Notes: generated by a model from the sequence alone, not told the origin. A stretch of 64,000 bases of DNA from an uncultured Verrucomicrobiae bacterium (GCA_963754775.1 CAVWHM010000023.1:94481-158480); one strand, 5' to 3'. Shown: positions 25,291-58,229, counted from the first letter of the stretch. Translations and numbers: made by a program.

Positions 25291-25302
25291 GTTGTTTCCC
25301 AC
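24757..25302 (-). CDS. HNH-family endonuclease-like protein
   Basis: CYLCGVP...LTLDHIPP...VPCCFECNNKHSG (CxxC ... DH ... CxxCN). The start is uncertain (GTG 25302 or ATG 25323). The ORF-track N-terminal extension is antisense to the tyrS remnant. Confidence 0.6.
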   Translation of the reverse strand: MGNNYSRGKILNNPKQNCYLCGVPVREYDLKPGEKHPSDELTLDHIPPMGLFPKPRPDDLIKVPCCFECNNKHSGFDERLRIVASMPFDRNEVGQRILDEKVIGSTFARERQMQFVEKLAVTMQAVSERPELIRAGIDDQEFKDGMIRITKGLLFTLHPDFDFYNQLLKPFTFGSSLLLSH

Positions 25303-25495
25303 CGACCGGCAAGTCTGGCGCATCCGCCCGTCCAAAGGCCAGGCACGAAAAGACATCGAAGGCGGCGGCGTGAACATCAACAACGTCCGCGAATCAAACT
25401 TCCAACGCGCGGTGACGGCGAGCGATTTGCTTTTTGGCCAGTATCTCCTGCTCCGCAAAGGCAAAAAAAATTACGTCGTCGTCAATGCGAAGTGA
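25290..25495 (+). pseudogene. tyrS: displaced native 3' end of tyrS (S4 domain fragment)
   Basis: High-GC fragment PSKGQARKDIEGGGVNINNVRESNFQRAVTASDLLFGQYLLLRKGKKNYVVVNAK*. By hand it aligns at about 27/51 identity with the current tyrS tail SKSDARRKIQEGAIYVNNFRETNLQRSITLNELKFGKNLLLRKGKKNYICL. It has no upstream catalytic domain. Confidence 0.75.
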
Positions 25496-25592
25496 TTGGC
25501 TGGCTACAGAATTTTGCGCCCCGGCTCGCCGATACTGGCAACGGTGCAAACTGCTTCGGCTGTCCTCGCACGACACTGCGTGTGGGTGTTCC

Positions 25593-27005: not shown

Positions 27006-27012
27006 TTATTCC

Positions 27013-27665
27013 TCAACTAAAAAATATTTTTACACAAATATAAACCCAAAAAACGAAAAGCCCAACCACAACCAACGCCAAAAACCCGTTCAGTGAGCCT
27101 TTGACTTCTTCCAACTCTTTATTGGCCTTCTTGTATTCAACAGTCGCTTCCTGCAATCTTCGCCTAGGATTCTTTCCCTCAATCATGAATCTCTTTACAT
27201 CAGGGTCAGTTGCAAAAAAATTCCCGGCGAACTCAAAGAACTTGAAAACTTTGAGAATGCTTTTGAAGCGTAAATCGTTTTTTTTGCCTGCGTATCTTTT
27301 CTCGACCAGCGGCAACAGTTGCTCGATTAAATACTGCGCCTTTTCTTCTTCCTTTAACAGCGGGAGTGTCGTTAAAACCGTCTGTCGAAAATTAGTTATC
27401 CGTTGTTCTTCGGCCATTTGCTCTTGGCGCGCCGCCATTTCGAGTTGTTGGATTTCCAACAAGCGCTGATGTCGAGCCGTGGCTTCTGCTGCGGCACTCG
27501 CTTCGCGTCGCATCTTTTCAACCGCTTCAGCCGTCTGTGCTATGTTAACCGCGCTCGCCACCGCTGCGGCTGCGGCTACTCTTTGGGCGAATAGTTGCTT
27601 CTTCTGCAGTGCCACTTCTTCTTGCCTTCGTTCTTCTTGCGCTGTTTTTCGACGTGTTCATTCAT
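27013..27665 (-). CDS. hypothetical coiled-coil protein with C-terminal TM anchor (low GC)
   Basis: ORF 27013..27615 (ALQKKQLFAQRV...EIQQLEMAARQEQMAEEQ... then the tail LALVVVGLFVFWVYICVKIFF). An ATG at 27665 directly follows the upstream TGA (ttaTGAATGaat) but needs one frameshift to join. GTG 27615 is the alternative start. Confidence 0.45.
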
Positions 27666-28140
27666 AAGCCATGATCGGGTGATTTTGTTCCTCGTGTAGC
27701 TACTCTTCCACCAGTTCGAGACTGATTGTGTTGATTCTCCAAGAGCTTCATGGTTTGCCTTTCGGTGAGCTTCTTTATGCTTCCCCGTGCTGTAAGCTTC
27801 TTGACGAGACAGAAGTCTTGGATTTTAGCCAGCACTAGGCATCGACCACCAGGGGCATCCCTTGTTTTATATTTAACTTCGCACAACCCAACATACCCCT
27901 CGTTAATTTGGTAACAAAAGACGTGGTCTCGCTTCCTACTTCATCAAATAGTGCCTTACCACGCCCCTTATTGAAACCGCGTGCATATGCGTCAAAAAGT
28001 TGAAAAGGTTCTGGCATCGAGAGAAACGTCCGGAATATTCTGCTAGAAAGTATTTCATCCTTGCCTTCCATTTTGGCATTCCAACGGATTGCCCAGTAAT
28101 TTTTTGGTTTCATTTTTTGGCGAGAGTTCTTGTTGTTCAT
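27662..28140 (-). CDS. hypothetical protein (two ORF fragments, one frameshift near 27885), first gene of a low-GC three-gene operon
   Basis: ORF 27835..28140 (MNNKNSRQKMKPKNYWAIRWNAKMEG...FVTKL) continues as INEGYVGLCEVKYKTRDAPGGRCLVLAKIQDF... in ORF 27662..27886. No family recognised. Confidence 0.4.
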
Positions 28141-42167: not shown

Positions 42168-43670
42168 ATGCAGCGAGAAAAGCAAGCAAATATGCCTATG
42201 AAATCAATATCTTTGAGCAATCCGGCAAAACCCGCCGCAACCCCGGTTGCAACGGGTCGCAACCTGAAAAGTGGCAGCAAAGTGGCAGCATTTTCCGACG
42301 AGCACGAACCCGCAAAATGGGCGGGCCGTTGGTCGAATCTGGCCGCCGACCACGTGAAGCGATGGGAAAAGCGTCTCTACGTCCCGAAATCCGGCCACGA
42401 GGGGGATGTTGTTGAAGCCCGCCGACTCGCCGTGCGGATTCAACACCTGGGCAGGCGCGAAGAATTTCGGTTCGAGACTACGAACCGCCAGGCTGCCGCC
42501 ATTCAAGCACTGGAAGTGTTCCGTTTCCTCAAATCGAATGGCTGGCCGGCCACGCTCGCCAAATACAAGCCCGAAGTCGAAAAGGTGAAACTCAACACCA
42601 CGATTGGCGATTACCTCGTCGCCGTCCATGATACGAACCGCCTGCGCTCCCGCACTTTTTTGAACTATCAAAACGCGCTGCGAACCGTCGCCGCCGAAAT
42701 CTTCGCCGTGAAGCTGGACAAAGGCGCGTCGAAATTCGATTACCGGAGCGGCAACCGCGAGCAAAGCGGGCGCGCCACATGGATTGGGAAGATTGACGCG
42801 CACCGGCTGGGCGAACTCACGCTGGAAAAGGTCACGGATTGGAAGCGCAAACGCGTCGTCCGCGCCGGAAACTCGCCCGCTGCCATCGCCTCCGCCAAGC
42901 GCACGGTCAACTCTTACATACGCTGTGCCCGCTCACTGTTCGCCCCCGGCATCGTCCGCGAAGTGAAGGGGCTGACGCTGCCCGACACGCTGCCCTTTGT
43001 CGGCGTTGAACTCGAAGAAACCGGCTCGATGAAATACGTCAGCAAGATCAACGCGCAAACCCTCATCGCCGCCGCAAAGCGCGACCTCAAAACCAAAGAC
43101 CCGGAAGCCTACAAAGCTTTTCTGCTTGGTCTGTTCGCTGGCCTGCGAAAAGCCGAAATTGATTCGTTGGAATGGGGGATGATTGATTTTTCGGACAACA
43201 TCATCCGGCTGGAACAAACCGAATGGCTGCACCTGAAAACTGACGATTCCGCCGCCGAAATCACCGTTGACCCCGAAGTGCTGGTCGAACTTCGCGCCAT
43301 GATACCGGAGCCAACAGACAAGCCGGCACAATGGAAGCAATTTGTTCTCGTCGGCACTCGTCCGCCGCGTCCCGAATCACCCCGGCCCTATTACCGCTGC
43401 GAAGAAACGTTTGAGCGGTTGAACGCATGGCTGCGGAGCAAGGGCATCACCGCCAACAAACCGCTGCACGAACTGCGGAAGGAACTCGGCGCCCTGATTG
43501 CGACTGAGCAGGGCATATACGCCGCGAGCCGTTTTTTGCGGCATTCCGACATATCCACCACCGCGCGCCACTACGCCGACCACAAGGCACGCATCAGCGT
43601 CGGTTTAGGCAAATACCTCGACACGTCCATCGGTGTTCCCTCGCAGCGAGCCAAAGCCGCCGTCGCATGA
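42168..43670 (+). CDS. tyrosine recombinase / phage-type integrase
   Basis: 500-aa intact ORF with C-terminal catalytic signature GLRKAEI (R), HELRKELG (HxxR), FLRHSDISTT (H) and ARHYAD (Y). The true start is uncertain, because the arm-type repeat lies at codons 34-41. Confidence 0.85.
   Translation: MQREKQANMPMKSISLSNPAKPAATPVATGRNLKSGSKVAAFSDEHEPAKWAGRWSNLAADHVKRWEKRLYVPKSGHEGDVVEARRLAVRIQHLGRREEFRFETTNRQAAAIQALEVFRFLKSNGWPATLAKYKPEVEKVKLNTTIGDYLVAVHDTNRLRSRTFLNYQNALRTVAAEIFAVKLDKGASKFDYRSGNREQSGRATWIGKIDAHRLGELTLEKVTDWKRKRVVRAGNSPAAIASAKRTVNSYIRCARSLFAPGIVREVKGLTLPDTLPFVGVELEETGSMKYVSKINAQTLIAAAKRDLKTKDPEAYKAFLLGLFAGLRKAEIDSLEWGMIDFSDNIIRLEQTEWLHLKTDDSAAEITVDPEVLVELRAMIPEPTDKPAQWKQFVLVGTRPPRPESPRPYYRCEETFERLNAWLRSKGITANKPLHELRKELGALIATEQGIYAASRFLRHSDISTTARHYADHKARISVGLGKYLDTSIGVPSQRAKAAVA
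42267..42291 (+). promoter_or_regulatory. 25-bp repeat aaaaGTGGCAGCAaaGTGGCAGCAt (candidate arm-type integrase binding site), left copy
   Basis: Perfectly identical to 61465-61489 in the same orientation. Internally it holds two GTGGCAGCA direct repeats. Confidence 0.5.
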
Positions 43671-44128
43671 AGAAACAGGCTGCTCCAAATCAAAGTGCCT
43701 TGCGTCGGAATCTTCTGGAACGCATCCGCGAGGCTTCGTTCCCTGCCGATTTTGACAAGTTCCATTGGCGGGAGTTGGAAGACGCCGGGTTGCTGGGTGG
43801 CTTTGTGAATCAGGGCTTGGACGCAAAGACATTCCGGCTCTTCGTGTTGCTCGCCACACAAGCAAAGGAACTACGCAAACAGCGCGACCGGCTGGCTCGC
43901 CGCGTTGAACTCTTGGAGCACTACCATTCGCCCCAGTGGGATGCCGTTTGGGAAGAACCATGCCCTATCAAAGCGGCCGCGCTTCGGCGCGAAGCGGAGG
44001 CAGACGACGCTCGCATCAACGAGCAGCGCCGCAAACAACGCGATCCGCTCGCGGGCTTTTTGGAAATGTTGGGCAAGGTTAAACGGCGCGACTGGGAGTT
44101 TCGAGACAAACGGCGGCGTCATCGCTGA
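43667..44128 (+). CDS. hypothetical protein (island)
   Basis: 153-aa ORF sharing ATGA with the integrase stop. Basic, coiled-coil-like C-terminus. No family recognised. Confidence 0.45.
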   Translation: MKKQAAPNQSALRRNLLERIREASFPADFDKFHWRELEDAGLLGGFVNQGLDAKTFRLFVLLATQAKELRKQRDRLARRVELLEHYHSPQWDAVWEEPCPIKAAALRREAEADDARINEQRRKQRDPLAGFLEMLGKVKRRDWEFRDKRRRHR

Positions 44129-44155
44129 TTCCGAGCCGTCTTGTGGCACGAGCCA

Positions 44156-44596
44156 ATGTCCGTAATGGACTACCACGAAGCGACGGGGTTAAGCCGCCGC
44201 ACAATTCAGAACAGGCTCGACCGTCTTGGTGCCCGACCAATCGCCGGGCGCAAGCGGCCTAACGAGCCAGCGCGCTATGGTCCGGGAGCGAATCATGCAT
44301 TGCTGTGCGACTGGCTTATCCGATACGTCAAAAACCCGAATGCGCGCCGCGGATGGCTCGCTCGCACACTGGTTCACTGCCAACACGAGACGCCGACGCA
44401 TTATGCTCAATTGTGTGAATCCATCCGGCCAGTGTTGGAATCTTTGAGTATTCAAACGACGGCGCAACGCCAGCAATTCGTTCGTTACTTGGGGGAGTGC
44501 AAAGTGATACTCCATCCACCGCCACCGCCGCCGACTTTTTTGGAAGACCCTCTTTCCATCCTAGGCATAAGCGGCCTCCAGGTCGCGTCTCAATAA
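44156..44596 (+). CDS. hypothetical HTH-containing protein (island)
   Basis: MSVMDYHEATGLSRRTIQNRLDRLG is helix-turn-helix-like. The remainder is unrecognised. Confidence 0.45.
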   Translation: MSVMDYHEATGLSRRTIQNRLDRLGARPIAGRKRPNEPARYGPGANHALLCDWLIRYVKNPNARRGWLARTLVHCQHETPTHYAQLCESIRPVLESLSIQTTAQRQQFVRYLGECKVILHPPPPPPTFLEDPLSILGISGLQVASQ

Positions 44597-44808
44597 CGTC
44601 GGCTGGCACTGTCCATTTGGTCATGGGCTGTGGGAAAATCCGGGCTTCTCCAAGCTTGTTTTTTTCTTTTGAGAAACATTCCGGCCAATTTCCGTGGGAA
44701 AACCGTCCCTCTTTTTCGCTTTAGTGCGTCCGTGTGACTTACGTTGTGGCCGTCAACACTGCGTTGACCTTCGTTGTGTGCTGCAACGATGAGCCGGGGA
44801 ATAAACAG

Positions 44809-45057
44809 ATGATTGATCAAGTTGAACAGCCGGCAGCCGGCAGGCCTGCCGCGAGCAAAACCACCCGTGGGACAGACGGCAGCAAATTCTTCACGCCGCG
44901 CCAGGTGGCAGACCGCTGGGGTTGGCATGTGGAAAGTGTGCGCCGGGCCATTCGCCAAAGGCGGATTGAATCGGTCGTGCTTTCCCGCCGGCTGCTCGTG
45001 CCCGTTGAGGAGGTCGAGCGGCTTGAACGCGAAGGACGCATAGCCCGCGCTGCTTGA
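44809..45057 (+). CDS. excisionase-family / MerR-like HTH DNA-binding protein
   Basis: KFFTPRQVADRWGWHVESVRRAIRQRRIESVVLSRRLLVPVEEVERLE matches the excisionase-type helix-turn-helix pattern. Confidence 0.6.
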   Translation: MIDQVEQPAAGRPAASKTTRGTDGSKFFTPRQVADRWGWHVESVRRAIRQRRIESVVLSRRLLVPVEEVERLEREGRIARAA

Positions 45058-45119
45058 AAGCCGGTCGTCTTCACCGACCAAATCGGTGAAGACGACTGGC
45101 AAAGCAGGATTACCAGATT

Positions 45120-45764
45120 ATGAGTAACAGCGACACGGAGTCACAGAGTTACGGAGACACTGACGACACGCAGGACTCGAAGGACGTTCCGCCCCTTGCA
45201 ACGTCCGTAAAGACGCTGCAAGAGGCGGTCCAACTCTCCCTCAAGGATGGCCTGACTGACAAGTGCCTGTTCATCTTCGCACGTGCGCTCAAGTCTTTTG
45301 AAAGAACTCATAACCGCCCCCTGCCGCCAAAAGAGTTGGACGCAGCTTTCGCGCTTTGGTGGAGCGCGGCGACGCCGCTGCTGACGCCTGCTGACGACTT
45401 CGACGAATGGCGACTCGATTTCCTGGCCACGTTCTCAAAGACGAAGTCACCGCTCGGCTCGAACTCACTTCAGGAAGCCATACTTCGTGCCAAGGCCGGT
45501 CCAATGCCGCCTCAAGCCGAACGTTACACCAATCCCAAAATCAAGCTCCTGGTCGCCGTCTGCTGCCACCTACAACTGCTGCAAGGCGATAGCCCCTTTT
45601 TCCTCAGCGCCCGCGCCGCCGCAAAGGTCATGGAGATGAAGAATCCTGAGCAGGCAAGTGCCATATTGACCGGACTTGTGTTCGATGGTGTTTTAACCGA
45701 AGTGAAGAAGGGCACACGCGCCGGAAGGCGGGCCACCCGATTTCGGTTCAACTTCGGCGAGTGA
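45120..45764 (+). CDS. hypothetical protein (island), acidic N-terminus, possible winged-helix C-terminus
   Basis: 214-aa intact ORF. No family recognised. Confidence 0.4.
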   Translation: MSNSDTESQSYGDTDDTQDSKDVPPLATSVKTLQEAVQLSLKDGLTDKCLFIFARALKSFERTHNRPLPPKELDAAFALWWSAATPLLTPADDFDEWRLDFLATFSKTKSPLGSNSLQEAILRAKAGPMPPQAERYTNPKIKLLVAVCCHLQLLQGDSPFFLSARAAAKVMEMKNPEQASAILTGLVFDGVLTEVKKGTRAGRRATRFRFNFGE

Positions 45765-45955
45765 TCTTGTAGCGCACGCGGCAGCTCCGCGCCGCCGCGC
45801 CGGCACACGGCCCGCCCGTGCGCGAGACGCAGTGGCGGGATGGTGCCCGGATGCGCCTCGGCTCGATTCCGGCCCGAAACGCGCGGCACACGCAACCCGA
45901 CACAACCCATAGTGCAAGCAGGCTTGCTGGGCAGACCGCCTCCTTTTGAAATGAA

Positions 45956-46330
45956 TTTTTCCGCCAGCCAATGGGTTTTAAGTGCGGGTAGATAGACCTC
46001 CTGCCTGGGGCAATACCCGCTGCCCTTGTTTGAAGGGGGCCAGTTTTCCCCGGGCCCGCCTGCCTTTCTTTTTAACTGGCGCACTTTTCCCCGCCAGCGA
46101 ATCTCGCCGACAGCCAAACCCAGCCTGTCCTTTTGGAAAACTTTTCCGGGCGATCTAACCCGTGTCCGCCGTCGAACGCTCGCAAATGTCCGTTTTGAGC
46201 CTGCTGCTTTTATTAAGCCGTGCTACTTTTTTATACATGTATTTTTACTCGCGTACTTTTCTCAGAGCGCCGCTATTTCGGCCCGTTGCCGGTCCGTCCT
46301 TTTCAGAACTTGGATACTTTTCCCGGCTTC
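45956..46330. repeat. ORF-poor region with about 10 dispersed CTTTTCC / ACTTTTC motifs (iteron-like)
   Basis: tttttccgccagcc 45956; cagttttccccgggcc 46041; cacttttccccgccagcg 46082; gtccttttggaaaacttttccgggcg 46127-46152; tacttttttata 46224; cgtacttttctcag 46252; gtccttttcagaac 46296; gatacttttcccggc 46313. Confidence 0.5.
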
Positions 46331-46788
46331 ACCCCTCATGCTGACTTGATGCCGTCCTTGTTCGCAAAAAAACGGCCACCGTCAGCTAACGTTTGGCCGT
46401 CTTGCCTGCACCAGCCGACGGCTTACGGTAATTCACCGGCCCGGGTTCACGCAAAACGGTGGGTTTGGCCAGCGCGCTTTCGAGGATCAACACGCTGCCG
46501 TCACGGTAAGTCACCACGGCGCTGCCGTCCGCGAATCGTTGGCGTCGCGGCCGTGCTTCTGTCTTGCTGGTTCTCTGTGGTGGACGTGGCATTGTGCGTC
46601 AGGTGAATTTCGCTCCTTTCTGCCACTGGCGCAAGCTGGCTCGCCGGTCTCAAAAAAAATCGCGCGCGACGGCCCGGCGTCAGCCACCATACACTCACCC
46701 TCTCCGCCTCGAACGGGGAGAACCGGCAGTTGTCTAATGAATCATGCCCTTCACTTCGTCACAAACATGAAAAACAACGTATGGAGAA

Positions 46789-47077
46789 TTGAATATGAAA
46801 CTGAACATTAAAGCATTCGCGCTCACCTGCGGTATCCTCTGGGGGCTGGGGCTGTTTTTTCTTACCTGGTGGTTCATCGCATTTGACGGTTCCACCGGCC
46901 AACCCACACTCATTGGCAAGATATATCGTGGCTATACGGTTTCCCCAATCGGCAGCGTCATAGGGCTGGTATATGCCTTTTTCGACGCTTTGATCGGCGG
47001 CGCGATTATTTGCGTGGCTCTACAACAAAATAGCGGGTTGCACCGACGCCAAGCCGACAGGTGACAAAAGCGCCTGA
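46789..47077 (+). CDS. small 2-3 TM membrane protein (DUF5676-like from memory); one frameshift near 47005
   Basis: MKLNIKAFALTCGILWGLGLFFLTWWFIAFDG...YAFFDALIGGAI, then LFAWLYNKIAG... in the next frame, ending at TGA 47075-47077. Confidence 0.45.
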
Positions 47078-47123
47078 CCCGCTTCGAGCAATGCGGGATG
47101 GCACGGCAATCGTTCTGCACCCC

Positions 47124-47207
47124 TCAACTTTCAACTTTCAACCTTCAACCTGCTCAAATACACGCCGGATGAACTGAATTCCACACTCCGCATTCCGCAT
47201 TCCGCAT
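47124..47207. repeat. two short tandem heptamer arrays (TCAACTT x4 degenerate; TCCGCAT x3)
   Basis: tcaactt tcaactt tcaacct tcaacct at 47124-47151. tccgcat x3 at 47187-47207. Confidence 0.8.
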
Positions 47208-47303
47208 TCGGGATGGCCAGAGTTGCCCGACGGCCATGCCTCGATTTGAACACGGTTAGCAGTTAATTTTCAACTGCGACGTTCGCAGATTTGCATTGAA
47301 GTG

Positions 47304-47861
47304 CTAAGAAAGAATGAAGCCCAATCCTTTCAGGACGAGACGCGTGGTGGGGCGGCTTAGTCTCTCTCCCCTTCCGTGAAATCCTCGCAAGTCGCCAAAT
47401 GGATAAAACGCCGATAAAGTGAAGACATGGTCGTTGAACTCCCTAGCATAATCCAGAACATCAACGATGGCCTGTCTCATCATTGCATCCGTTGGTCTGC
47501 TGCCGTGCATGACTTTGTCGCGAACGGACTCTGCATCCTTTAATTTTTTTGCCGCGGACGGTTTAACAGACTGGCCGAACAGGGATTCAAACAAAGCCCT
47601 GAAACTATCCCGCGTGAGATGTTGTTTTTGTATTACTTGGCGGGCCATATCGGCATCGGCGTGATGAAGTTTGACGACGCCGCAGTAAAGAGTGTCTCGG
47701 TGCGCCAACTCTACTCGATAGAACAAATAAGCAAGGCAGACTTCAAGGGGCAATGTTGGCTGAATCAAATCCGAAAAATACGTGAAGTGCGGCTGTACAC
47801 CCGCCGGCAAATTCGCAAAATGATTCAACAAACTGTTCCGGTTTGGGAATGGATTAGGCAT
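47304..47861 (-). CDS. HEPN-like protein (Rx4H motif), last gene of the restriction operon
   Basis: The start ATG overlaps the res stop (TAATG at 47859-47863). 185 aa, low GC, predicted all-helical. AESVRDKVMHG fits the HEPN Rx4-6H signature. Confidence 0.5.
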   Translation of the reverse strand: MPNPFPNRNSLLNHFANLPAGVQPHFTYFSDLIQPTLPLEVCLAYLFYRVELAHRDTLYCGVVKLHHADADMARQVIQKQHLTRDSFRALFESLFGQSVKPSAAKKLKDAESVRDKVMHGSRPTDAMMRQAIVDVLDYAREFNDHVFTLSAFYPFGDLRGFHGRGERLSRPTTRLVLKGLGFILS

Positions 47862-50559
47862 TACTCGTATTTCCCGCTGGTCTTCTTCCTGATCGCTTCC
47901 AAATCTTTCCCCTCCGGCATCACGAACAGGCATTTCCCGCCGCTGCGACCTTCCCACACCGCGCCGACGGCGCGCTTTTCCTCCGCGTCAGCAAATAAAT
48001 GTTCGCCCTTGTATTCCACGACCAGTTCGCGTCCGTCATTCAGTTGGCAAAGGAAGTCGGGATAAAACCAATTCTTCGAGGTTTGCAGCCGGAACGAAGT
48101 CGCCTTGTTCGCAAGATTCCGCACCCAAAACTTCACTTCCGGCAAACCGTCGAGGAACTGCGCGCATTGAAATTCCTCTTTCAGTTTGCCGCTCGGCGTC
48201 GTTTCCAGCAGTTCGCCGGGCTTTGGGCCGAAGTAATGATTCTTGAACTGGAAACCGCCTTCATAGAGCCAGCTCGGCTCATAGCTCATCGTCTTGAAAT
48301 TGATCGACGCGCTCGTCGCTGACGGTCAGGGCGGAATCCGGCAAAAGAAATTGCTGGAACGCCGCCTTCCGTTCGCTGTCGCGGTGCTGCTGGATCCGTT
48401 CCTCGACTTCTTCCCGCAAGCGGAAGCGGTCCAGCGCCAGCACGCTCATGTCGGCGATTCCAAACTTCGCCATCAGGCCGCGAATCACCTTTCGCAAAAA
48501 CTCCGCCGATTCGCCGGCGGGAATGTCCTGATGGTCAATGTGCCGGTCGAGCCAGCCGACCAAATCTTCCAGCTGTCCAATCGCCCGAACCACCCAGCGC
48601 GATCACTTGTTGGTGCAACGTCGCCACGAAATCACTGTCCGGCTTGTCCTGCAACATGCTCGTCTGCACTTCGCCTTTCGCGCCCACGTCCACCAGATCC
48701 CGCCTTGCCTGCTGGCCGCTTCAGCGGGTTGTAGCCGTCAGCCAGCGAGGCGTCCTTCGCGCTCAATTTCCACGGATGCTCCAAGCAGAAACGTGCTCTC
48801 GAACTCAAACAACATTCCATTCTCGCGCACGCAAAGCAGCGGCACGATGAAATCAATCTGCTTTTCGTAAGGCGACGGCTCGCGTGTTTTGCCGCTTCCG
48901 CCAAACGCCTTGTCCATCTCGCGCACCAGTTCGACCGCTTCGGCAACTTTCGCTTTTGCTTCCGGCGTCTTCACGCAACTCGCCAGCTTCTCCGCTTCAA
49001 CCTTGTCGAGCGGGACGAGCACGGTGATTGCGCCGCTGGCCGTATCAATCCGCGCCTTGCCCGCCAGTGCCGTCACTTGTGCTTGCGCCACCGTCGCGTC
49101 AATGTCCGCTGGCGACACCTGCACCGTCTTGGGTTGCGCGCCGAGTGGCAGCGCGCCTTGCGAAACGGGAATGATAATCCGTTCCGCTTCCGCTCGCGTG
49201 AATCCGTTGCTTTCCAGCGCCTCCCGCAACTCGTTCAAAACTTCCGGCAACGAATCCGAAACGGAAAACGCATACGCGCAATTCAAGTCGGGATGCTGTT
49301 TCGCCTGCGCGTTCGGCAGGCGGAGAATGCGCCCGACGATTTGCTCAATCGCCGTGGCCGAGCGCGTCTCCTTCAAGCTGCAAAGCACATAGGCAAACGG
49401 ACAATCCCAGCCCTCGCGCAACTTTCTGCACCGTGATAATGAAACGCACCGCCGGCTCTTTCGACGATTTGATTTCTTCCGCGCTCGGCAATTCGTCGTT
49501 GCGTGCCAACCGAAATTTTCACTTGGTCTTTGGCGATGCCAAACTCGTTCGCCAACCGCTCGCGCAACGGCTCGCACGCATCCACCCGCTCCGCCTGAAT
49601 CAGCATGATCGGGCGCAAATACTCGCCGGTCTTTTGCGCCTCGGCGATTGCGATTTTTTCCAAGTCGCCGCGCAACGTGATGGCTTCGGACAGCAATTGA
49701 TCGCGCTGGCTTGGATGCCGGGTGATTACGCGCAACGGCAGCTTCACCATGTCCGCCGCCTTCAATTCCGCCGCTGAAACATGATGCAGCACATTCGACG
49801 GCGCTGCGCCGGTGCGCGCGGGCGTGGCGGTGAATTCCACGATGCACGACGGCAAAACATTTCCCAGCGTGGCAAAGCGACAAATCCGTGCGCGCGTTGT
49901 GCGCCTCGTCAACGATGACGATGGGGCGGCGCAACCGCAGCATGTTGACCAGCGACGGTTTTGGTTTTCCATCCGCGCCCGGCAGCAAATCCGCCAGCCG
50001 GTCGGCGGGCACGTTCAGCAAATGTTCCGAAAAACTTCCGTTCTGGTCATAAACTTTCCGCCCGGTCGTGTCTTCCACGCGAAATGCCTGAATCGTGGAA
50101 ACAATGACAACCGTTTGCCCGTCCACCGTTGCACGCGGAAGCCGCAACGCTTCTTCAATCGTCACCACTTCCACCGAACCGCACGCCAGTTCCAATGCGC
50201 GGCGATACGGATGGCGCGGGTCACGCAACGCATCGGCGGTCTGGTCGAGAATCGTGTTGCTCGGCACGAGCCATAGCACTACCGCGCGTTCGGCGCGCAT
50301 GAAATCCGTCATGGCCAGTCCCGCCGCGTGACACGCCAGCAACGTTTTTCCGCCGCCTGTCGGCACGCGCAGGCAGACATAAGGCATCTGCGGTTTCATC
50401 CCAGCCGCGTTCACCGGAATGTAAGGTATGAGCCGTTCCGAAAGTGCGCGCCGTGATTTCGCGGAAAGCCGGGTCAGGATTCTGCTCGCGCGCCGCGATG
50501 CGGAAGAAATCCCGCAGCGAATCCAGCACCCGCGTTTGATAATCTTTCAGCGTTATCAT
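47861..50559 (-). pseudogene. res: type III restriction enzyme Res subunit (SF2 helicase plus C-terminal PD-(D/E)xK nuclease); about 5 frame breaks
   Basis: Motif I is RVPTGGGKT and motif II is IVIVDEAHNA. The C-terminal fragment 47861..48289 has FYPDFLCQLNDGRELVVEYKG. The N-terminus MITLKDYQTRVLDSL starts at 50559. Fragments lie in several frames (ORFs 50221.., 48738.., 49373.., 48279.., 47861..). Confidence 0.75.
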
Positions 50560-52174
50560 GACACTTTGATTTCGTAAGGCGTTTGCCGGACGATGATGCG
50601 CTCCGCCTGCAACCGGTCGCGGCCCAGCAGACAACCGGCGCAGTAAATCACTTTCTGCCCGTCAAACTTGGGCAACTGCGCGAGCACGCTGCGCGTCAAA
50701 ATATTTCCGCCGTTCGCGCTCTTGTCGCCCAGAATGCCGTTGAACAAAAGATAAATGCCGACGCCGCGACACTCGCCAATCAATGGCGATTTCAGCACGC
50801 GCTCGCGCGGCAACGGCTCGCCGGTTTCGGTGAAATAAACGTGCCGCGCCAAATCCGCGAAGCGCACGGATGGTTTGATTTGCCCGTGCTCGTCAAACAA
50901 CGGCTCGCCGAGTTCGCAGAAGCGGAAGCCACCGCCCAAGCCTTCGACTTTCTCGCCTTTGGCGTTGGTGTAACCTTGGGCGACGCGCTTGACGCGCTCG
51001 GCGGTGATGTCGCGCGCGATTTTGGGTTCCATTTCCACGAGGATGAAACGGCGGTTGCCGCCGTCCGCTTTGTTCAAATTCAAAACTGCGTGGCCGGTCG
51101 TGCCGCTGCCGGCGAATGAATCCAGAATCAAATCGCTGGGTCTGCTGGCAATTTGAAGAATCGCTGTTCAATAAGTTTCGTTGGCTTTGGAGTGTCGAAA
51201 GTCTGTCGCTGTCCGAAAATGTCTTCGAGTTCTTCGTCTGGCGTCATCGTTGTCTCCGACATCTTCGCCGAGACCAAATGTGATTCTGCGACTCAGCCCT
51301 TCCTGACATCGATTCAAGATAAGTTTTTCTGAGCGACTTGTCGTCTCATTTGCCCGAAATACAATTTCATCCTGTCTGAATCCATTTCTGCCATTGGCTC
51401 ACTTACTCCAACGCCATTCCTTTGCGGGCGGCATCTAAATGATTTTGCCAGACGGCGTCGCCAAGTCATAAATGAGGTTCGGTCTGTACAGGGCATTGCC
51501 GAACGTCGCCAGACTCGTCCACGGCCCGATCGGGATCATTGTCGGGATTCGTGTAATTCGGCATTGTGTCTCTTCTTTGCCGCGGAATATCGCGCGAATG
51601 CAAATACTTCGTACTTTGGCATAAGCAAGAACGTAATCGTGGTCGATTGAAATTTTTCGCGATGCCTTTGGTTCGAACGTCTGTTTTGCCAAAGAATTGT
51701 CGCACAAATTGTTTTCCCGCCAAAAATTTCATCCATAGCAATGCATGGCGTGTTCAATTTCGTTATCATCAATGCTGAAATAAAAATTGCTCCGTCTTCG
51801 CGCAGGAATTGCCGGAGCAACGCGAGGCGCGGATACATCATGCAGAGCCATTTGTCGTGGCGGGAGAGGTCTTCGGCTTCCTTGCCCACGGCTTTGCCGA
51901 GCCATTCGCGGATGAGCGGGCTGTTGACGTTGTCGTTGTAAATCCAGCCTTCGTTGCCGGTGTTGTAAGGCGGGTCAATGTAGATGCACTTGACCTGGCC
52001 GGCGTAGTAAGGCAGCAGCGCCTTGAGCGCGACCAGATTGTCGCCCTGCACGATGAGATTGCCGCTGCCGGGATCGCCACAGGCCAGTTCCGGCACGTCC
52101 TTGAGCAGATGAAACGGAACCTGGTGGTGATGGTTCACCACGGCATCCTTCCCAATCCAGTTCAGCGTCGGCAT
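50556..52174 (-). pseudogene. mod: type III-like (beta-class) DNA methyltransferase Mod; middle (target-recognition) part broken by several frameshifts
   Basis: The N-terminal part has IYIDPPYNTG (motif IV) and the C-terminal part has ILDSFAGSGTTGHAV (motif I), so the order is IV...I. The stop overlaps the res start (ATGA at 50556-50559). The 51130-51540 segment is readable only in pieces. Confidence 0.7.
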
Positions 52175-52182
52175 GGCGGTGG

Positions 52183-53196
52183 TTACTCGGTTTCGTCCAG
52201 TGGCTCCGGCACGTAAACACGTTTCAGCGGGAGCAGGGCTTTGTAGCGCGAGTCGAATTGCTCGTAGTGTTGGAGAATGAGCGTGACCAATTCGTCGCCG
52301 TCAATCAACCGCAAGTTGCTTTTGTTGCGAGCAAAGGCTTTGGCTTGGGTCGTGAAAGTTCCAAGCGTGACCACCAACCCGAATTCGGAACGCTCGACCT
52401 TGCCGTTGAGTTGTGACACGACAGGTTCGCCGATAGTTCCTTCAGCGCTTTTGACCTGCACTTTGACGAGCGGCGGCTCGAAACCAAGTTCGTCTTTGTG
52501 CGCAATAATATCCACGCCGCCGTCCGGCCCTTCGGGTGAAAGTCTGGTGCGATAACCCATCGTCGCCAAAAGGTGCGCGACAAACTCCGCGAGCGCATGG
52601 CCTTTCAACTCTTGGGCCAGCAACTTGACGATGTAATCGCGGGTTGTTTGTTCGATGTCTTCCGCGACGTAGGAAACGGAATCGTCCTGCTTCGGCGGTT
52701 GTGCCGTGGGCTGGCCTGTGAGGGCGGCAAGGAATTCGTCGGCAAACTGCCGGACTTGGAAGAAGCTCAACGCAGAGCCGATTTCGTAAAGCGCGCCCTG
52801 CGAGAAATGGGTGCGGGGAATTGCTTTTAGCCATTTTACCGGCCTCTGCCGCGGATAACCCGGCTGGGGTTTAGTGTCGTGTTTGGCCGGGCCGGTGATT
52901 TCCCCGATATGAACCAAACGGTCGCTCTTGGATGGATAAATGACGAGGTCGCCAGTCTTTACTTCGTGAACGAAACGGAAAAGCTGGCCGGCAGCATTGC
53001 GAATAAAGCCCTCCGGGCGAGTGGGGTAGCACTCTTTTACGCGGGACTTAAAGGCTTCACGGTCGGCGGGCAACTTTGTGACATCCCCGACTTCTACAAA
53101 GCCAAGCGCAATAACGTTGTGCGTGAGGAAAAGTTGGTCGGCATCACCCGTTTTCCCGGCGTGGATGCCCCAAAGGGTAGAAGGTTGCTTGCTCAT
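52183..53196 (-). CDS. Mrr-type restriction endonuclease (C-terminal Mrr_cat-like domain) with an unassigned roughly 150-aa N-terminal domain
   Basis: 337-aa intact ORF. The C-terminal part is GPDGGVDIIAHKDELGFEPPLVKVQVKSAEG...VVTLGTFT (D...QxK core). It ends 8 nt before the mod ATG. Confidence 0.7.
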   Translation of the reverse strand: MSKQPSTLWGIHAGKTGDADQLFLTHNVIALGFVEVGDVTKLPADREAFKSRVKECYPTRPEGFIRNAAGQLFRFVHEVKTGDLVIYPSKSDRLVHIGEITGPAKHDTKPQPGYPRQRPVKWLKAIPRTHFSQGALYEIGSALSFFQVRQFADEFLAALTGQPTAQPPKQDDSVSYVAEDIEQTTRDYIVKLLAQELKGHALAEFVAHLLATMGYRTRLSPEGPDGGVDIIAHKDELGFEPPLVKVQVKSAEGTIGEPVVSQLNGKVERSEFGLVVTLGTFTTQAKAFARNKSNLRLIDGDELVTLILQHYEQFDSRYKALLPLKRVYVPEPLDETE

Positions 53197-53265
53197 GCAG
53201 ATTGGCTGGCATCGTAGTCAACGCAAGTCTCAACGGAAAGGAAAACTAGCGGCTCGCACGATTGC

Positions 53266-53790
53266 TCATAACAACCCTGTAGGCGGCAATTGCCCCGTAT
53301 AAACGATTTCGATGCTGACGACTTGAGGGTTCAAAATCACAACGCCGCCGTCGGTTCGTCGGCTGGGAAAGTAAATGCCGCTCGCGTTGTCCATCGTTCC
53401 CAAAGTTTGAAGGCACTCGACTACGAATTGAGACTTGAAATACTGCCCGGTCTGGAGGTCGCGGTCGTTGTAGATGGCAGTCAGGAACGGTTCTGGCAGT
53501 TTGCTCATGTTCCAGACCGGCGTCTCTTGGCGTAGTTTTGACCACTCGTAAATGGGTGTTCCCGATGGTCTCGTTTCGGCAACAGCCACTTTGAATGTGT
53601 CGCCGTACCAGTTGCCGCTATCGCCGGGCAGCTTGAAGCTTCCTCCTCCCGTCGAGACGAACCCGGTCCAATACTTCTGCGCGTCCCCAGTCACAGCTCT
53701 ACACATTGGCTGTCCCGCCGGCATATTGTCCAACAGACTGTTTCCGCTGGCCATGAGCCAGCCCGATATTTGTGAATAATAATTTTCCAT
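53266..53790 (-). CDS. hypothetical protein (174 aa, lower GC) upstream of the Mrr-like gene
   Basis: Intact ORF. No motif recognised. Confidence 0.35.
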   Translation of the reverse strand: MENYYSQISGWLMASGNSLLDNMPAGQPMCRAVTGDAQKYWTGFVSTGGGSFKLPGDSGNWYGDTFKVAVAETRPSGTPIYEWSKLRQETPVWNMSKLPEPFLTAIYNDRDLQTGQYFKSQFVVECLQTLGTMDNASGIYFPSRRTDGGVVILNPQVVSIEIVYTGQLPPTGLL

Positions 53791-53869
53791 ATACCATCAT
53801 TTACACGCACAGCAGACGGAATTTGTGGTCTAACGCAACTTTTTCTCAAATTTTGTTTTTCACATTTGA

Positions 53870-56800
53870 CTAGATTATGTGTAGGGCCGGAAGGTCTTTC
53901 GGACTGCCCGTTCTAGTTCTTGGTTTCCCCGCCCGCAACACTCGCAACGAAAATCCCCGCCCATTCTCGAACGGCTCGACCGTCGCCGTGACTTCCAGCA
54001 CCGGATACCGCACCGTCGCCAGTCCGTAGCTTTTGTAGGTCTGCGCGAATAATTCCGTTTCCACCATGCCCGTCCAGTCCGCCAGCGTCAGGAATTTCAT
54101 CGGCTCGCCGGTGATCTGGTGATGCGTGCGCTGCTCCACCACCAGCCCGCACGTCACCACCGTCTCGCCGACGTGTTCGCCCAGCCGCGCCACGGGGCAA
54201 TAGGTGTCCCAAGCCACGTCGTCAAATAATTCCAGCGGATGCCCGCTCACCGCGTAGCCGAACAATTCCGTCTCGGCCTCCAGTCGTTCACGGCGCGTTG
54301 GTTCGCGCAGCAAGGCCGGATTCGCGCGAAGAAATCCGAAACCGGATTCGTGCGCGCCGTCAAAATCAAATTCCAAATTCCGTGCCCGGTTTCTGCCTCG
54401 CTGCCACTGCTCTGATGCAGTTGCTGCGCCTCCCAAAACTGCCGCGTGCGCGTCTGGCCAAATTCATCAAAGCCGCCCGCGCGAATCATCGCCTCCAATT
54501 CTTCCGGCGACGGCTTTACGCGGCGATGAAAGTCGGCCAGCGAAGCGAACGCTCCGCGCTCGCGCTCGGCCAGCAGCCGTTTGCTGGTGCGGTCGGTCAG
54601 TCCTTTGGCGCGGGTCAGCGGCACACGGATCGCATTGCCATGCGACCGCGAACTGCGGGCCCGGTTCGTTGACGGTCGGCGGCAGGAATTTCAACCCGAG
54701 CCGGTAGCTTTCCAGCACATAAACCAGCGGGTCATAAAAGCCTTTGCCGTTGGTCAGCACGGCCGCCATGAACTCCGCCGGGTAATTGCGCTTGAGCCAG
54801 GCCGATTGATACGCCTCGACGCCATAGGCCGTGGAATGCGCCTTGCAAAAGGCGTAGCCGGCAAAGCCCGCGACCAGTCCCCACACTTCCTCAATCTTTT
54901 CCGGCGCGTGTCCGCGCGCCCGCGCCGACGCGAAGAATTCCTCCTGAATCTCCGCGATGACGGCGCGCTTCTGTTTGTTCAACGCCCGGCGCAACACGTC
55001 CGCCCGGCCCGGCGGCAAGCCGGCAAACGCCTCGCAGATTTGCAGAATGTGCTCCTCATAAACCACCAGCCCGAACGTGTCGCGCAACACGGGTTCCAGC
55101 GACGGATGCGGATACGTCACCGGCTCCAGCCCCTGATAGCGCCGCGTGAACGCCAGCTTCTTGCCTTCGTTGGCCGCGCCGGGCCGGATGACGCTCACGA
55201 TGGCGATGAGCGTGTCAATGTCCCGCACGTTGCACTGGCGGCACAGGCCGGTCATGGCCGGGCTTTCGATGTGATGCACCGCCCGCGCCGCCGCCGGAAA
55301 TCATTTCCCAAACCTGCGGGTCCTGCCACGGCTCCAGCGCGTTCAAGTCCACGGTGATGCCGCGCTTGGCCAGCGACGCCTTCACGTCGCGCATCGCCGC
55401 CAGCCCGCCTTGCGCCAGCACGTCAATTTTCACCAGGCCGATGGCTTCCACGGCGTCCATGTCGAAATGCGTGGTGGGATAGCCTTTGTTGGAAATGAAC
55501 GTCGGCGTCAGTTCGTGCATCGGCTGGCGCGACAGCACCACGCCGCACGGGTGCATCTTGGGATAGCGCGGAAAGCCGTCGAGAAACTCCGCCATGTCCA
55601 GCGCGGTCTTGAACGGTTCTTCGTTCAACGGCAGGTCGCGGTTTTCGGGACTGGCGGCGAGCAGTTCGCGCAACTTCGCCCCGCCGCTCGGCGTGGGTTC
55701 GTCCGGCACCCAGCCGCCGCCGAAGCTCCACGGAAAATGTTCGGTGAACCGGCGCACTTCGCGTTCGGCCACGCCCAGCACCTTCGCCACGTCCGCAAAC
55801 GCGCTGCGGGCCTGAAACGTCGAGAAGCCGCCCACCACGGCGCAATGCTCCCGGCCATATTTGGCGAAGATGAGGTCCACCACGTCGTCTTTCCGGTCAT
55901 GCGGAAAATCAATGTCAATGTCCGGCAGCTTGTTCAGCGCCATGCGTTCCTCGTTCAGAAAGCGCCGGAAATAGAGGCCGAAGCGGATGGGGCAGACATC
56001 GGAAATGCCGAGGCAATAGCACACGAGCGAGTCCGCCGCGCTGCCGCGCGTGATCCATTCGATGCCGTGCGCGCGGCAATCTTGCAGGATGTTCCAGACG
56101 ACCAGAAAGTATTCCTCGTAGCCGACGGCGCTGATGATGCGCAATTCCTGTTCGATTTGCGGGCGCATGGTTGCGAGTGCGATCGCCGTAGCGCCGCGCG
56201 CGCCGTCCACACGAGCTGGTGAAGAAATTCGCGCGGCGTGGAACCGTCCGGCGGCACGAACGCGGGAAACTGCGGCTTGCCGAACGGCATTTCAAAATTG
56301 CAGCGTTCGGCGATTTCCAGCGAGTGCGCCAGCCATTCGGGATGTTCTTTGCACGCCGCCGCCATTTCTGCCGGCGTGCGAAAATGAAACCGTCCGTCCG
56401 TTGCGTTTGGACGGATGTTCCTGGCGGAGCAACGTCAGCGTGCGGATGGATTGCACGATGTCGTATTTCATCCGGTCGTCCGGCGCTGGCGTAATGAATC
56501 GCCGGACAGGCGACGACGGGAAAGTCCTAGCTCCGCACCCGGTAGGGACGCGCTGCCGCGCGTCCGGCCGATGAGGTGCTCTCGTCTGTGCCATCTGATA
56601 AAAACGTCCGGGAAACAGTTCGGCCAGCCGCAAGTCCGGGCTGACGGCAATCAAGCCGTCGGTGAATCCGTCCAGACGTTCAAACGCGATAGGGCGGCGC
56701 TGCTGCGCCGCAACCGCGCCTTCCTCGTTGCTCTTTCTCGGCTTGGCGCGACAACAGCCGATTCAAATTGTGATAGCCGCGCGCGGATTCGACAAAGAGC

Positions 56801-56915
56801 AAAAGCGGAGTTGTCCTTGGTGGCCGTTGCAAGGACCAATTCCGTTCCGAAAATCGGTTTGATGCCTGCGCGCTTCGCCGCCTGCGCAAACTCCACCGCG
56901 CCGTGCAGACCTGCC
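53870..56915 (-). pseudogene. dnaE2: DnaE-type DNA polymerase III alpha, probably error-prone DnaE2 (ImuC); at least 6 frame breaks and the extreme N-terminus missing
   Basis: PHP region: GLHGAVEFAQAAKRAGIKPIFGTEL. Palm/fingers: DIDIDFPHDRKDDV, KIDVLAQGGLA, VSVIRPGAANEGK, GYAFCKAHSTAYG. C-terminal OB fragment: 53870..54436. Total size is about 1,030 codons, and an adjacent Y-family fragment argues for dnaE2. Confidence 0.7.
56541..56565. repeat. GGTAGGGACGC-family hairpin inside the dnaE2 remnant
   Basis: ggtaGGGACGCGctgcCGCGCGTCC. Compare hisC 3866-3890 (ggtaGGGACGCGgtgccCCGCGTCC). Confidence 0.65.
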
Positions 56916-57005
56916 CGATTTGAGCCAGTCCTGCTGCGTTCAATCGCACGGCGGTTTTCGGTCCAATGCCCGGCAACCACTTATTCGGCAGGGAGTGAAG
57001 AAATT
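56915..57005 (-). pseudogene. fragment of a Y-family polymerase (ImuB/DinB-like HhH segment) fused to the dnaE2 remnant
   Basis: QEKQFLHSLPNKWLPGIGPKTAVRLNAAGLAQIGQ matches the LP...LPGIG.KT...L...GI.T.G motif. It is truncated on both sides. Confidence 0.5.
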
Positions 57006-57007
57006 GC

Positions 57008-58229
57008 TTTTCCTGTCCGCCCCGGCAGCAGAGTTGCTGAAGGATTGGCGCACGGGTCAAAACACCCAACATTCAATGACGGCGCTGTTGCGGCAGTCTC
57101 TCTACAGCCGGTTGGCCGGTTACGAGGACACCAACGATGCCGAGCGGCTGGCGGTCGATCCGGCGATGCGGCAGGTGGTGGGCGGGCGGGCGACCGAACA
57201 CACGGCGGCTTCGACCAGCCAGATGGGACGTTTCGAGACCGAAGTGTTGACCCAGCCGAAGAACCTGAACGCCTTGACGAAGTTGTCCGGGACCTGGATC
57301 GACCGGCTGCGGGAACACAGACGCCATGCGGGAACTGGTCTTGGACATGGACAGTTCCGTGAGCGAAACCTACGGCGAACAGGAAGGCACGGCCTACAAC
57401 GGACATTTTGCCTGCACCTGCTATCATCCATTGTTTTGCTTCAACCAGTTTGGCGACGTGGAAGGCGCGCTGCTGCGCGAGGGCAACGTGCACAGTGCCA
57501 AGGATTGGCGGGCAGTGCTGGAACCGGTGGTGGCCCGCTATCCTGCTCGCAAGCTTCGGCGTTATTTTCGGGCGGACGCCGCCTTTGCCCAGCCGGAACT
57601 CTATGAGTATCTGGAAGCCGAAGGATTTGAATATGCCATCCGCCTGCCCGCCAACGATGTATTGCTGCGGGAGATTGAGCCAATGCTGACCCGGCCAGTG
57701 GGCCGTCCGTCCAATACGCCGGTGGTCCGGTATGCCGGCTTTTTGTACCAGGCCAAGAGCTGGAATCGGTCCCGGCGGGTGGTTGCCAAGGTCGAATGGC
57801 ACAGAGGCGAACTGTTCCCCCGCATCGGGTTCATCGTGACCAACCTGACCCGGCCCGGCCAAAACGAGTGGTGCGGTTTTACAACCAGCGGGGAACGGCG
57901 GAGCAATGGATCAAGGAAGGCAAGAATGCGGTCAAATGGACGCGGCTGTCGTGCCATGATTTCGTGGACAATCAGGTGCGGCTGCACCTGTTCGTGCTGG
58001 CCTACAACCTGGGCAACTTTCTGCGGCAGGCGGTGCTGCCGCGGGTCAGTAAGGCACTGGACATTAACGACGCTGCGGGAGAAATTGATCAAGATCGGAG
58101 CCAAGGTGGTGCGTCATTCCCGGAAGATTGTCTTTCCAGATGGCAGAGGTGGCGGTTCCGCGAGCGTTGTTCCGGTCCATTCTTCAGGCAATAGACCGCT
58201 TGCGCCTGCCCGCCAGGGCCAGCGGATGA
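57008..58229 (+). mobile_element. IS1380-family-like transposase gene, 5'-truncated with at least 4 frameshifts (IS remnant)
   Basis: LKDWRTGQNTQHSMTALLRQSLYSRLAGYEDTNDAERLAVDPAMR, then LDMDSSVSETYGEQEGTAYNGHF, VVRFYNQRGTAEQWIKEGKNAVKWTRLSC, LREKLIKIGAKVVRHSRKIVF and QMAEVAVPRALFRSIL. Family call is from memory of DDE_Tnp_1_4-type proteins. No inverted repeats identified. Confidence 0.6.

Follow-up and report, generated by a model that had tools for sequence, protein, structure and literature searches.

The window analysed here, a stretch of 64,000 nucleotides from an uncultured Verrucomicrobiae bacterium (GCA_963754775.1 CAVWHM010000023.1:94481-158480), carries on its minus strand four tightly packed genes in which a restriction-modification (R-M) pair appears broken and the genes on either side of it appear intact. 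Read on that strand, the cluster comprises a gene for a Mrr-like nuclease, a type III methylase gene (mod), the restriction gene that accompanies it (res) and a gene for a small all-helical protein. The question raised by this locus is whether the R-M core has decayed with retention of two accessory nucleases, one of two options raised in a preliminary description, or whether the breaks have another origin. Our analysis makes it probable that the cluster is a composite defence operon, and the probable cargo of an island, in which an ordinary type III core is joined by two mobile, R-M-associated accessories, and that the frame breaks are assembly errors. The main value of such a result is corrective, as a broken R-M core beside intact accessory nucleases would here be an artefact of assembly and not the outcome of selective decay.

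Organization of the four-gene cluster

The four genes, numbered from the first letter of the window, are as follows.

52183..53196, minus strand, Mrr-like open reading frame (ORF), 337 amino acids (aa), uninterrupted when read on the minus strand
50556..52174, minus strand, type III mod, with its ATG at 52174, split over several frames
47861..50559, minus strand, type III res, in nine frame segments
47304..47861, minus strand, gene for the small all-alpha protein, 185 aa, uninterrupted

The TAA stop of the Mrr-like gene is separated from the mod ATG at 52174 by a gap of 8 nucleotides (nt), the mod stop and the res start overlap in the sequence ATGA (50556-50559), and the res stop overlaps the start of the small ORF in the sequence TAATG (47859-47863). 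Both outer ORFs align with their homologues over their full length, and Mod and Res are spread over several frames. The coordinates, the common orientation and all three junctions reported in the preliminary description were correct, and so was its reading of the 337-aa and 185-aa ORFs as intact. Operon-like packing of the cluster is supported by this arrangement. A scan of the four genes for promoters and terminators returned signals at background level.

The type III modification and restriction genes

Fragments of Mod matched the PADLOC model MTase_III (PDLC03644) with E-values of 1.3e-82 over profile positions 1-182 and 2e-62 over positions 348-541, together with the Pfam family N6_N4_Mtase. 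The ORF translations contain IDPPYNTG, which holds the DPPY of motif IV, and DSFAGSGTTG, which corresponds to the S-adenosylmethionine motif FxGxG. The N-terminal 160 aa and the C-terminal 191 aa each lie in a single frame; between them, tblastn with the 537-aa Mod of a metagenome contig (L032) resolved many short frame switches within the central target-recognition region, at about 51130-51800. This is the worst stretch, being of low GC content, rich in homopolymers and scrambled in both of the noisy assemblies compared below.

Consecutive fragments of Res matched PADLOC REase_III (PDLC03650; 1.9e-52, 2.6e-19 and 5.4e-26) and Pfam ResIII. After repair of its reading frame, as described below, the 896-aa Res carries PTGGGKT and DEAH, the motifs of a superfamily 2 (SF2) helicase, and the PDF...EYK of a C-terminal PD-ExK nuclease. 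Contig L032 has the same order of genes, with a Mrr-like protein that is 88% identical, an 8-nt gap, the 537-aa Mod, an ATGA overlap and an 895-aa Res.

Judged from their sequence, Mod and Res form a type III pair of the standard kind, and the type III-like methyltransferase and helicase-nuclease proposed at the outset were thus correctly recognized (MTase_III 1.3e-82, REase_III 1.9e-52). The likeness to type III R-M systems of the EcoP15I/EcoP1I type extends to the position of Mod before Res, the stop/start overlap, the DPPY and FxGxG motifs, helicase motifs I and II and the PD-ExK nuclease. The differences are that the window genes are frameshifted as assembled, which we judge to be an artefact, and that the unit carries two flanking genes foreign to the canonical two-gene system.

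The Mrr-like protein

The Mrr-like protein matched Pfam Mrr_cat over residues 195-307 (4.9e-27) and, over its full length, the PADLOC family PDC-S02 (1.6e-136). Its N-terminal domain is given as Pfam DUF8426 in precomputed annotation, with PF28530 and PF04471 occurring together in homologues. The family is unusually conserved, with more than 6000 homologues and 65-85% identity across phyla, and the residues D229, Q247 and K249 of the PD-QxK nuclease are invariant. In the AlphaFold2 (AF2) model the N-terminal domain has a predicted local distance difference test score (pLDDT) of about 90. Foldseek searches with the model retrieved MspJI (1.4e-6) and AspBHI (3.5e-4), and the N-terminal domain aligned with the N6-methyladenosine (m6A) reader YTHDF2 (about 3e-3, probability 1.0) and with the EVE-like structure 2gbs (6.6e-3).

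On the strength of these models the protein appears to be a PUA/YTH/EVE-like reader fused to a Mrr nuclease, a combination of reader and nuclease that is the architecture of type IV/IIM enzymes (PMC6765204). The Pfam, PDC-S02 and MspJI matches all agree with the modification-dependent type of nuclease that had been proposed from the presence of Mrr_cat. An N-terminal PUA/YTH/EVE-like domain followed by a C-terminal PD-(D/E)XK nuclease is likewise the layout of MspJI, AspBHI and the PUA/EVE-nuclease fusions (Lutz et al. 2019, PMC6765204).

The small 185-aa protein

The fourth gene encodes a protein of 185 aa for which no match at threshold was found in Pfam, NCBIfam or PADLOC. Its family comprises 88 homologues when clustered at 90% and 328 representatives when clustered at 50%, and these are almost without exception stand-alone proteins of 100-250 aa; most measure about 185 aa and the shorter ones look like fragments. 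A profile search of a set of 5.8 billion proteins returned proteins of the same family only, with no Pfam-annotated domain among the matches listed. Searches by tblastn of PLSDB plasmids and INPHARED phages gave no match, and a scan of IMG/VR gave one locus only. The ORF has an atypical composition of about 51% GC and was missed as coding by a codon-usage model trained on the long ORFs of the window, and this composition is consistent with a foreign origin.

The sequence VRDKVMHG, an Rx4H motif that had led to the proposal of a HEPN RNase, is present in the protein as R114 to H119. Eight residues are invariant among 56 aligned homologues (Y45, E51, R114, H119, G120, P154, L158 and G160), and D115, the polar residue that follows R114, is conserved in at least 90% of them. 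The conserved glutamate forms part of E51-x3-R55 in the clade of the window protein and of E-x3-N-R in other members, and a C-terminal P-F-G-D-L-R-G-F-x-G motif is invariant in the family. The AF2 model (pLDDT 94.8) is all-helical, with E51 within a long helix (39-66), two short helices (70-79 and 84-95) between this and helix 101-118, and R114-H119 at the end of helix 101-118, running into the loop before helix 125-150.

HEPN domains are defined by an Rx4-6H motif that closes helix 3 and has a polar residue following its arginine, by an acidic residue further upstream, often within Ex3[KR], and by inserted sequence that separates helices 2 and 3 (Anantharaman et al. 2013, PMC3710099). With the placement of the motif judged from the secondary structure of the model, the 185-aa protein displays the Rx4-6H motif with its polar residue, the corresponding position of that motif, the insert between helices 2 and 3 and the upstream glutamate. 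A relaxed Pfam scan found HEPN_Swt1 (PF18731) in 19 of the 56 members, always over the motif helix, with a best E-value of 0.0016; these matches cover profile positions of about 57-107 out of 115 and score about 13-15 bits on the members listed, against a gathering threshold of 27.5. Stray weak matches in the family were to RiboL-PSP, Apea and DUF3644, and a relaxed PADLOC scan gave weak matches only, half of them to HEPN-containing models (Csm6, CARF_HEPN and RT-HEPN). No significant profile match to a HEPN family was obtained, and the window copy itself has no match. Foldseek searches of PDB and BFVD with the model returned noise only, and a profile-based search of the sequences in PDB yielded a single hit attributable to chance (E 0.85).

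The HEPN identity first assigned to this protein is therefore weakly supported, in that the Rx4H motif is invariant and HEPN-like in position; the profile scores lie below threshold and the structural searches of PDB and BFVD found nothing. We regard the protein, from its sequence and predicted structure, as rather likely to be HEPN-like and not as an established HEPN member. The Abi2/Swt1 HEPN clade (PF18731) is the sole family to recur in the relaxed scans, over the Rx4H helix, and is a clade described as embedded in R-M operons (PMC3710099). All scores of the 185-aa family are below the gathering threshold of this model, and membership of the clade is not established.

Alternatively, the protein could be something other than a HEPN RNase, namely another helical protein carried along with mobile or defence islands, such as a regulator, an R-M adaptor or an anti-defence or addiction factor, with an Rx4H motif that arose by coincidence. 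The lack of a significant profile or structural match to any HEPN is in keeping with this, as are the invariant P-F-G-D-L-R-G-F-x-G motif, which has no HEPN counterpart, and the many genomic contexts without defence genes. We nevertheless consider such a coincidence unlikely, given that R114 and H119 are invariant in 56 diverse homologues together with a polar residue after the arginine and an invariant upstream glutamate, that the motif occupies the helix-end/loop position by which HEPN domains are defined, and that the weak matches fall disproportionately on HEPN models (Swt1 in 19 of 56, RiboL-PSP, Apea, DUF3644, Csm6, CARF_HEPN and RT-HEPN). An unannotated family of about 185 aa that carries a HEPN-type Rx4H motif and recurs in type I and type III R-M operons and in defence or mobile islands would be a candidate for a new restriction-linked RNase.

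Association of the two accessory genes with restriction-modification systems

The neighbourhoods of the Mrr-like gene were surveyed in the 80 best metagenome loci, 50 of which have at least 1.5 kb of downstream sequence. A DNA methylase lies directly 3' of the Mrr-like gene in 20 of these 50 loci, comprising 14 of the N6_Mtase/HsdM type and 6 of the N6_N4_Mtase type as assigned by Pfam. By tblastn, the methylase lies 6-56 nt 3' of the Mrr-like gene on the same strand, and is a type III Mod at 5 loci and HsdM at 17 or more; a few loci are ordered HsdM-HsdS-Mrr. PUA-nuclease fusions, in contrast, are reported to lie near methylases only rarely, with less than 6% having one within 3 kb (PMC6765204). 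A widespread and conserved family that habitually stands directly upstream of type I and type III methylases differs from these published neighbourhood statistics, and the absence of a linked methylase, a criterion for modification-dependent enzymes, does not hold for the PDC-S02 family in 20 of 50 loci. This tight and unusual link suggests that the role of the family may not be plain type IV restriction. The methylase beside the Mrr-like gene belongs to a complete R-M module, however, and hence is not necessarily cognate.

For the 185-aa protein about 26 distinct contexts were covered. It is linked to R-M genes in 5 of them: the window and L001 (type III), L014 and L027 (type I), and L026 (NmeDI_C). 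Compared with the window copy, the four other loci are arranged as follows.

L001, 80% identity to the window copy, after a type III Mod-Res pair whose Res is about 33% identical to that of the window, with no Mrr-like gene upstream
L027, 73% identity to the window copy, after a type I HsdS
L014, 49% identity to the window copy, between HsdM and HsdS, with HsdR downstream
L026, 74% identity to the window copy, after an NmeDI_C protein

Other contexts include a NACHT NTPase, a giant DEAD/MZB/S24 protein, integrases (L004 and L112) and an island with reverse transcriptase, TumE and toxin-antitoxin genes. All-against-all clustering of the neighbours in 17 GTDB loci gave no conserved partner. At the loci of one homologue (P0029) a 460-aa reverse transcriptase (RVT_1) is located upstream in some and not in others (L120, L121 and L125 versus L122-L124), and P0029 is followed by TumE, HVO_A0114 and DUF4160/DUF2442 toxin-antitoxin-like genes, so that the region looks like a variable defence or toxin-antitoxin hotspot.

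A stronger proposal is that both accessories are dedicated R-M partners and not chance neighbours, the 185-aa protein being a minimal HEPN guard on type I, II and III complexes and the Mrr-like protein a reader nuclease coupled to an adenine methylase. If this were true, the 185-aa RNase would dock on R-M complexes and fire when they are disabled, in the manner of PrrC without its ATPase domain; the DUF8426-Mrr family would break with the avoidance of methylases seen in PUA-nuclease fusions; and the window would hold a three-layer operon with both partners on one type III core. We regard this proposal as rather unlikely.

Origin of the frame breaks

We examined whether frame breaks are confined to mod and res by tracking the reading frame across the window with a home-made hidden Markov model (HMM) of codon usage, after which candidate switches were checked with Pfam. 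The HMM is crude and cannot tell gene boundaries from frameshifts, and served only for the choice of segments. The gene adjacent to the cluster on its upstream side was used as a control for the specificity of the frameshifts.

53870..~56980, minus strand, dnaE, DNA polymerase III alpha, in at least five frames

Successive fragments of dnaE match positions 324-602, 609-818 and 933-1049 of NCBIfam PRK05673. In hisD, positions 9-272 of the Pfam profile lie in one frame and 275-411 in another; in a class I/II aminotransferase gene, profile positions 2-90 and 151-360 are found in different frames; and in the trigger factor gene (tig) the Pfam domains Trigger_N, FKBP_C and Trigger_C alternate between frames. 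An OEP (TolC-like) efflux gene and a DDE transposase gene within the window are also split. The coordinates of hisD, the aminotransferase, OEP, tig and dnaE are 1799-3101, 3389-4693, 6968-8020, 8729-10084 and 53870-56980, respectively. Several uninterrupted ORFs of 1.5-2.1 kb are present in spite of the indel-rich nature of the window. The statement in the preliminary description that only the two classical R-M genes are broken thus holds within the four-gene cluster and is misleading for the window as a whole. Since dnaE, hisD, the aminotransferase, tig, OEP and the transposase show similar damage, the breaks appear to characterize the assembly rather than the R-M genes.

The res gene was compared with its intact counterpart on L032, to which it is 90% identical at the nt level. 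The only differences in frame are eight single-base insertions, at 50431, 49877, 49501, 49426, 48782, 48696, 48574 and 48308. When these eight bases are removed, an uninterrupted ORF of 896 aa results, which aligns without gaps to L032 Res with 95.9% identity over 893 aa and contains no nonsense codon, deletion or other damage. A second comparison was made with L030, a public ENA contig with a Flye-style record name, from a strain about 94% identical to the window. L030 lacks the res insertions at 49877 and 49426, shares that at 49501 and has private insertions in res at 49692, 49624, 49576 and 49197, with private indels in dnaE also. When res, mod and dnaE are compared between the window and L030, the great majority of substitutions, put at 80-97%, affect the third position of the codon, with counts of 30:3:0, 16:4:1, 18:4:0, 35:1:0 and 57:16:7 in five segments; this is indicative of purifying selection on all three genes.

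With insertions only and no erosion, with every catalytic motif preserved, with private indels that differ between two assemblies and with essential genes equally damaged, the data point to indel errors in the assembly and not decay as the cause of the breaks in mod and res, as far as can be read from the sequences. The source is probably a noisy, strain-mixed, long-read metagenome assembly, and all four genes are probably intact in the organism itself. All eight res insertions lie outside homopolymers, and L030 has private extra bases of a similar style; the error signature in res is an unusual one, which resembles insertion-biased long-read noise more than homopolymer deletions.

The absence of breaks in the two outer genes has its own explanation. 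If the indel rate of res (eight in 2.7 kb) were uniform, the Mrr-like and small ORFs, 1.57 kb together, should contain about 4.7 breaks, and the probability of observing none is about 0.01, which implies that the quality of the sequence is uneven. At ~51990-53850 the window contains a block of about 1.8 kb with the mod start, the Mrr-like gene, a 174-aa ORF and the spacer next to dnaE. This block matches L030 at 100% identity, one indel near 53.7 kb excepted, and a Logan contig at 99.9%, and on both sides of it the sequence diverges by about 5%, mostly at third positions of codons. The location of the Mrr-like gene inside this block explains its lack of breaks, and the sequence of the small ORF was confirmed in an independent Logan contig. 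The block suggests either recent recombination or transfer between co-existing strains or a collapse of strain coverage. A Logan contig, L031, ends almost exactly at the edges of the block.

Genuine decay, in which mod and res would be real pseudogenes and the two accessory nucleases would be retained under selection, has some observations in its favour: within the cluster only mod and res are broken, the two intact genes would be expected to show about 4.7 breaks at the res rate (P ~0.01), the insertion at 49501 is common to the sister contig L030 and the central region of mod is very badly scrambled. It is nonetheless improbable, as the essential or housekeeping genes dnaE, tig and hisD are broken just as often, res has eight insertions without any other damage and retains 96% protein identity at 90% nt identity, the substitutions fall at third codon positions and the private indels differ between the two assemblies. 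Decay of the R-M core with retention of accessory nucleases is consequently not supported, and the uneven sequence quality that had been offered as the other explanation is the one favoured, given the eight insertions in res, the private indels of L030 and the frameshifts in housekeeping genes.

Two further explanations were discarded. One, that mod and res undergo programmed frameshifting or phase variation, conflicts with the position of the indels outside repeats and homopolymers and with the presence of eight of them in one gene. The other, that dnaE is a dispensable, decayed paralogue, was rejected as hisD and tig are broken too.

Recurrence of the cluster

The full four-gene set was found at no locus besides the window among the 80 Mrr-like loci and the approximately 26 contexts of the 185-aa protein. 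Subsets of three genes do recur: L032, L036 and L041 have Mrr-Mod-Res, and L001 has Mod-Res-small protein. Between L001 and the window the small protein shows 80% identity and the adjacent Res only about 33%, which indicates shuffling of modules. The cluster is a mosaic, in which a type III core is combined with two accessories that are each independently associated with several R-M types. L041 (5912-13550) carries a PDC-S02-type Mrr-like gene, Mod, Res, an unannotated 329-aa protein and a 353-aa Mrr_cat protein with a Top1-type zinc ribbon, so that its type III R-M genes are bracketed by two different Mrr_cat proteins.

The fixed Mrr, type III and HEPN arrangement envisaged earlier was not supported by this survey, as only two- and three-gene subsets were recovered. 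An undescribed four-component system of Mrr-like protein, Mod, Res and HEPN-like protein with mutually dependent parts, which would fit the tight packing with overlapping stops and starts and the recurring subsets (L032, L036 and L041; L001), is very improbable in view of the missing second four-gene locus, the different 329-aa gene and second Mrr_cat gene 3' of Res in L041, the lack of a Mrr-like gene upstream in L001, the lack of a start overlapping the Res stop in L032 (the closest Mod/Res relative), the greater frequency of both accessories with type I systems or alone, and the 80% versus about 33% identities of small protein and Res between the window and L001.

Several observations weigh against the reading that we prefer, of a composite operon with breaks introduced by assembly. 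The methylase linkage of the Mrr-like family (20 of 50 loci) is unusual when set against the figure of less than 6% reported for PUA-nuclease fusions (PMC6765204), and about 16 of the 26 contexts of the 185-aa protein have no recognisable defence gene, as screened by tblastn alone. The interpretation of the breaks as errors is indirect, being drawn from assembled contigs rather than raw reads; the eight indels in res all add a base outside a homopolymer, unlike the errors classically left by nanopore sequencing; and one of them (49501) is common to the window and L030. Finally, the clean accessory genes require uneven quality, and this unevenness is observed and its cause only inferred.

Proposed roles and known parallels

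The picture that remains is probably that of an ordinary type III R-M system with a known defence candidate, PDC-S02, and a new unannotated family that is probably HEPN-like and restriction-linked. In the scheme that follows, the enzymatic specificities, the RNase activity and any functional cross-talk between the parts are predicted from the observed gene identities, motifs and packing. Mod would methylate an asymmetric site, and DNA lacking this methylation would be cut by Res, which couples an ATP-driven SF2 motor to a PD-ExK nuclease. The PUA/YTH-like reader and Mrr nuclease of PDC-S02 most likely cuts DNA with foreign base modifications, by analogy with related enzymes, and its targets would most simply be cytosine modifications as for MspJI and AspBHI. 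Such targeting would be compatible with the adjacent methylase, since a type III Mod is usually an adenine methylase. This layer would cover phages that evade classical restriction through modification of their DNA. The 185-aa Rx4H protein would then most likely be a HEPN-type, metal-independent RNase, acting as an abortive-infection-like back-up when defence at the DNA level fails.

A back-up role of this kind has been proposed for at least 16 R-M-linked HEPN clades and shown for PrrC with EcoprrI, the proposed logic being that of an RNase held as a second line of defence and restrained by the R-M complex (PMC3710099). The 185-aa gene resembles PrrC-EcoprrI, an anticodon nuclease with a type Ic R-M system, and the R-M-linked HEPN clades in that an Rx4H gene is co-directional within R-M operons of more than one type. 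It differs from PrrC and RloC in that the protein stands alone without an ABC-ATPase domain, bears no significant resemblance to either of these or to any named HEPN family, and is R-M-linked in only about 5 of 26 contexts, with an RNase activity that is predicted.

A parallel for the combination of nucleases can be drawn with a well-known chromosomal region of Escherichia coli. In the 'immigration control region' of E. coli K-12 (hsdRMS-mrr-mcrBC), classical R-M genes and modification-dependent genes are clustered, and both unmodified and modified invaders are covered. The window likewise clusters a classical R-M system with a putative modification-dependent gene. In the window, however, 8 nt separate the Mrr-type gene from the methylase gene that follows it in what appears to be a single operon, and the N-terminal domain of the Mrr-type protein is PUA-like and not the Mrr_N winged helix of K-12 Mrr. 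The ideas that follow from the two accessory families both fit known concepts of layered defence and call for no new category.

Genomic context and other features of the window

The following features lie on either side of the cluster.

42168-43670, plus strand, tyrosine integrase, 500 aa (Pfam Phage_integrase 1.3e-9)
44734-45057, plus strand, HTH_17 excisionase-like ORF (Pfam HTH_17 1.4e-4)
53266..53790, minus strand, unannotated 174-aa ORF between dnaE and the Mrr-like gene, with no Pfam or NCBIfam match

The integrase and the excisionase-like ORF, which lie just past the small ORF, suggest that the R-M cluster is the cargo of an integrative island bounded by dnaE. Several small unannotated ORFs are found beside the integrase (42168-45764), and about 1.5 kb that is apparently non-coding (45760-47300) separates the integrase region from the small ORF. 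The 174-aa ORF is absent upstream of the Mrr-like gene of L032. A DDE_Tnp_1_4 transposase gene (56981-58131) is located directly upstream of the dnaE start and occupies three frames, with profile positions 32-131 and 137-314 in different ones. Elsewhere in the window, positions 23000-28000 are of low GC content (46-50%, against about 58% elsewhere) and encode Sel1-repeat proteins, including one fusion with a trypsin-like peptidase; this stretch is probably a separately acquired island.

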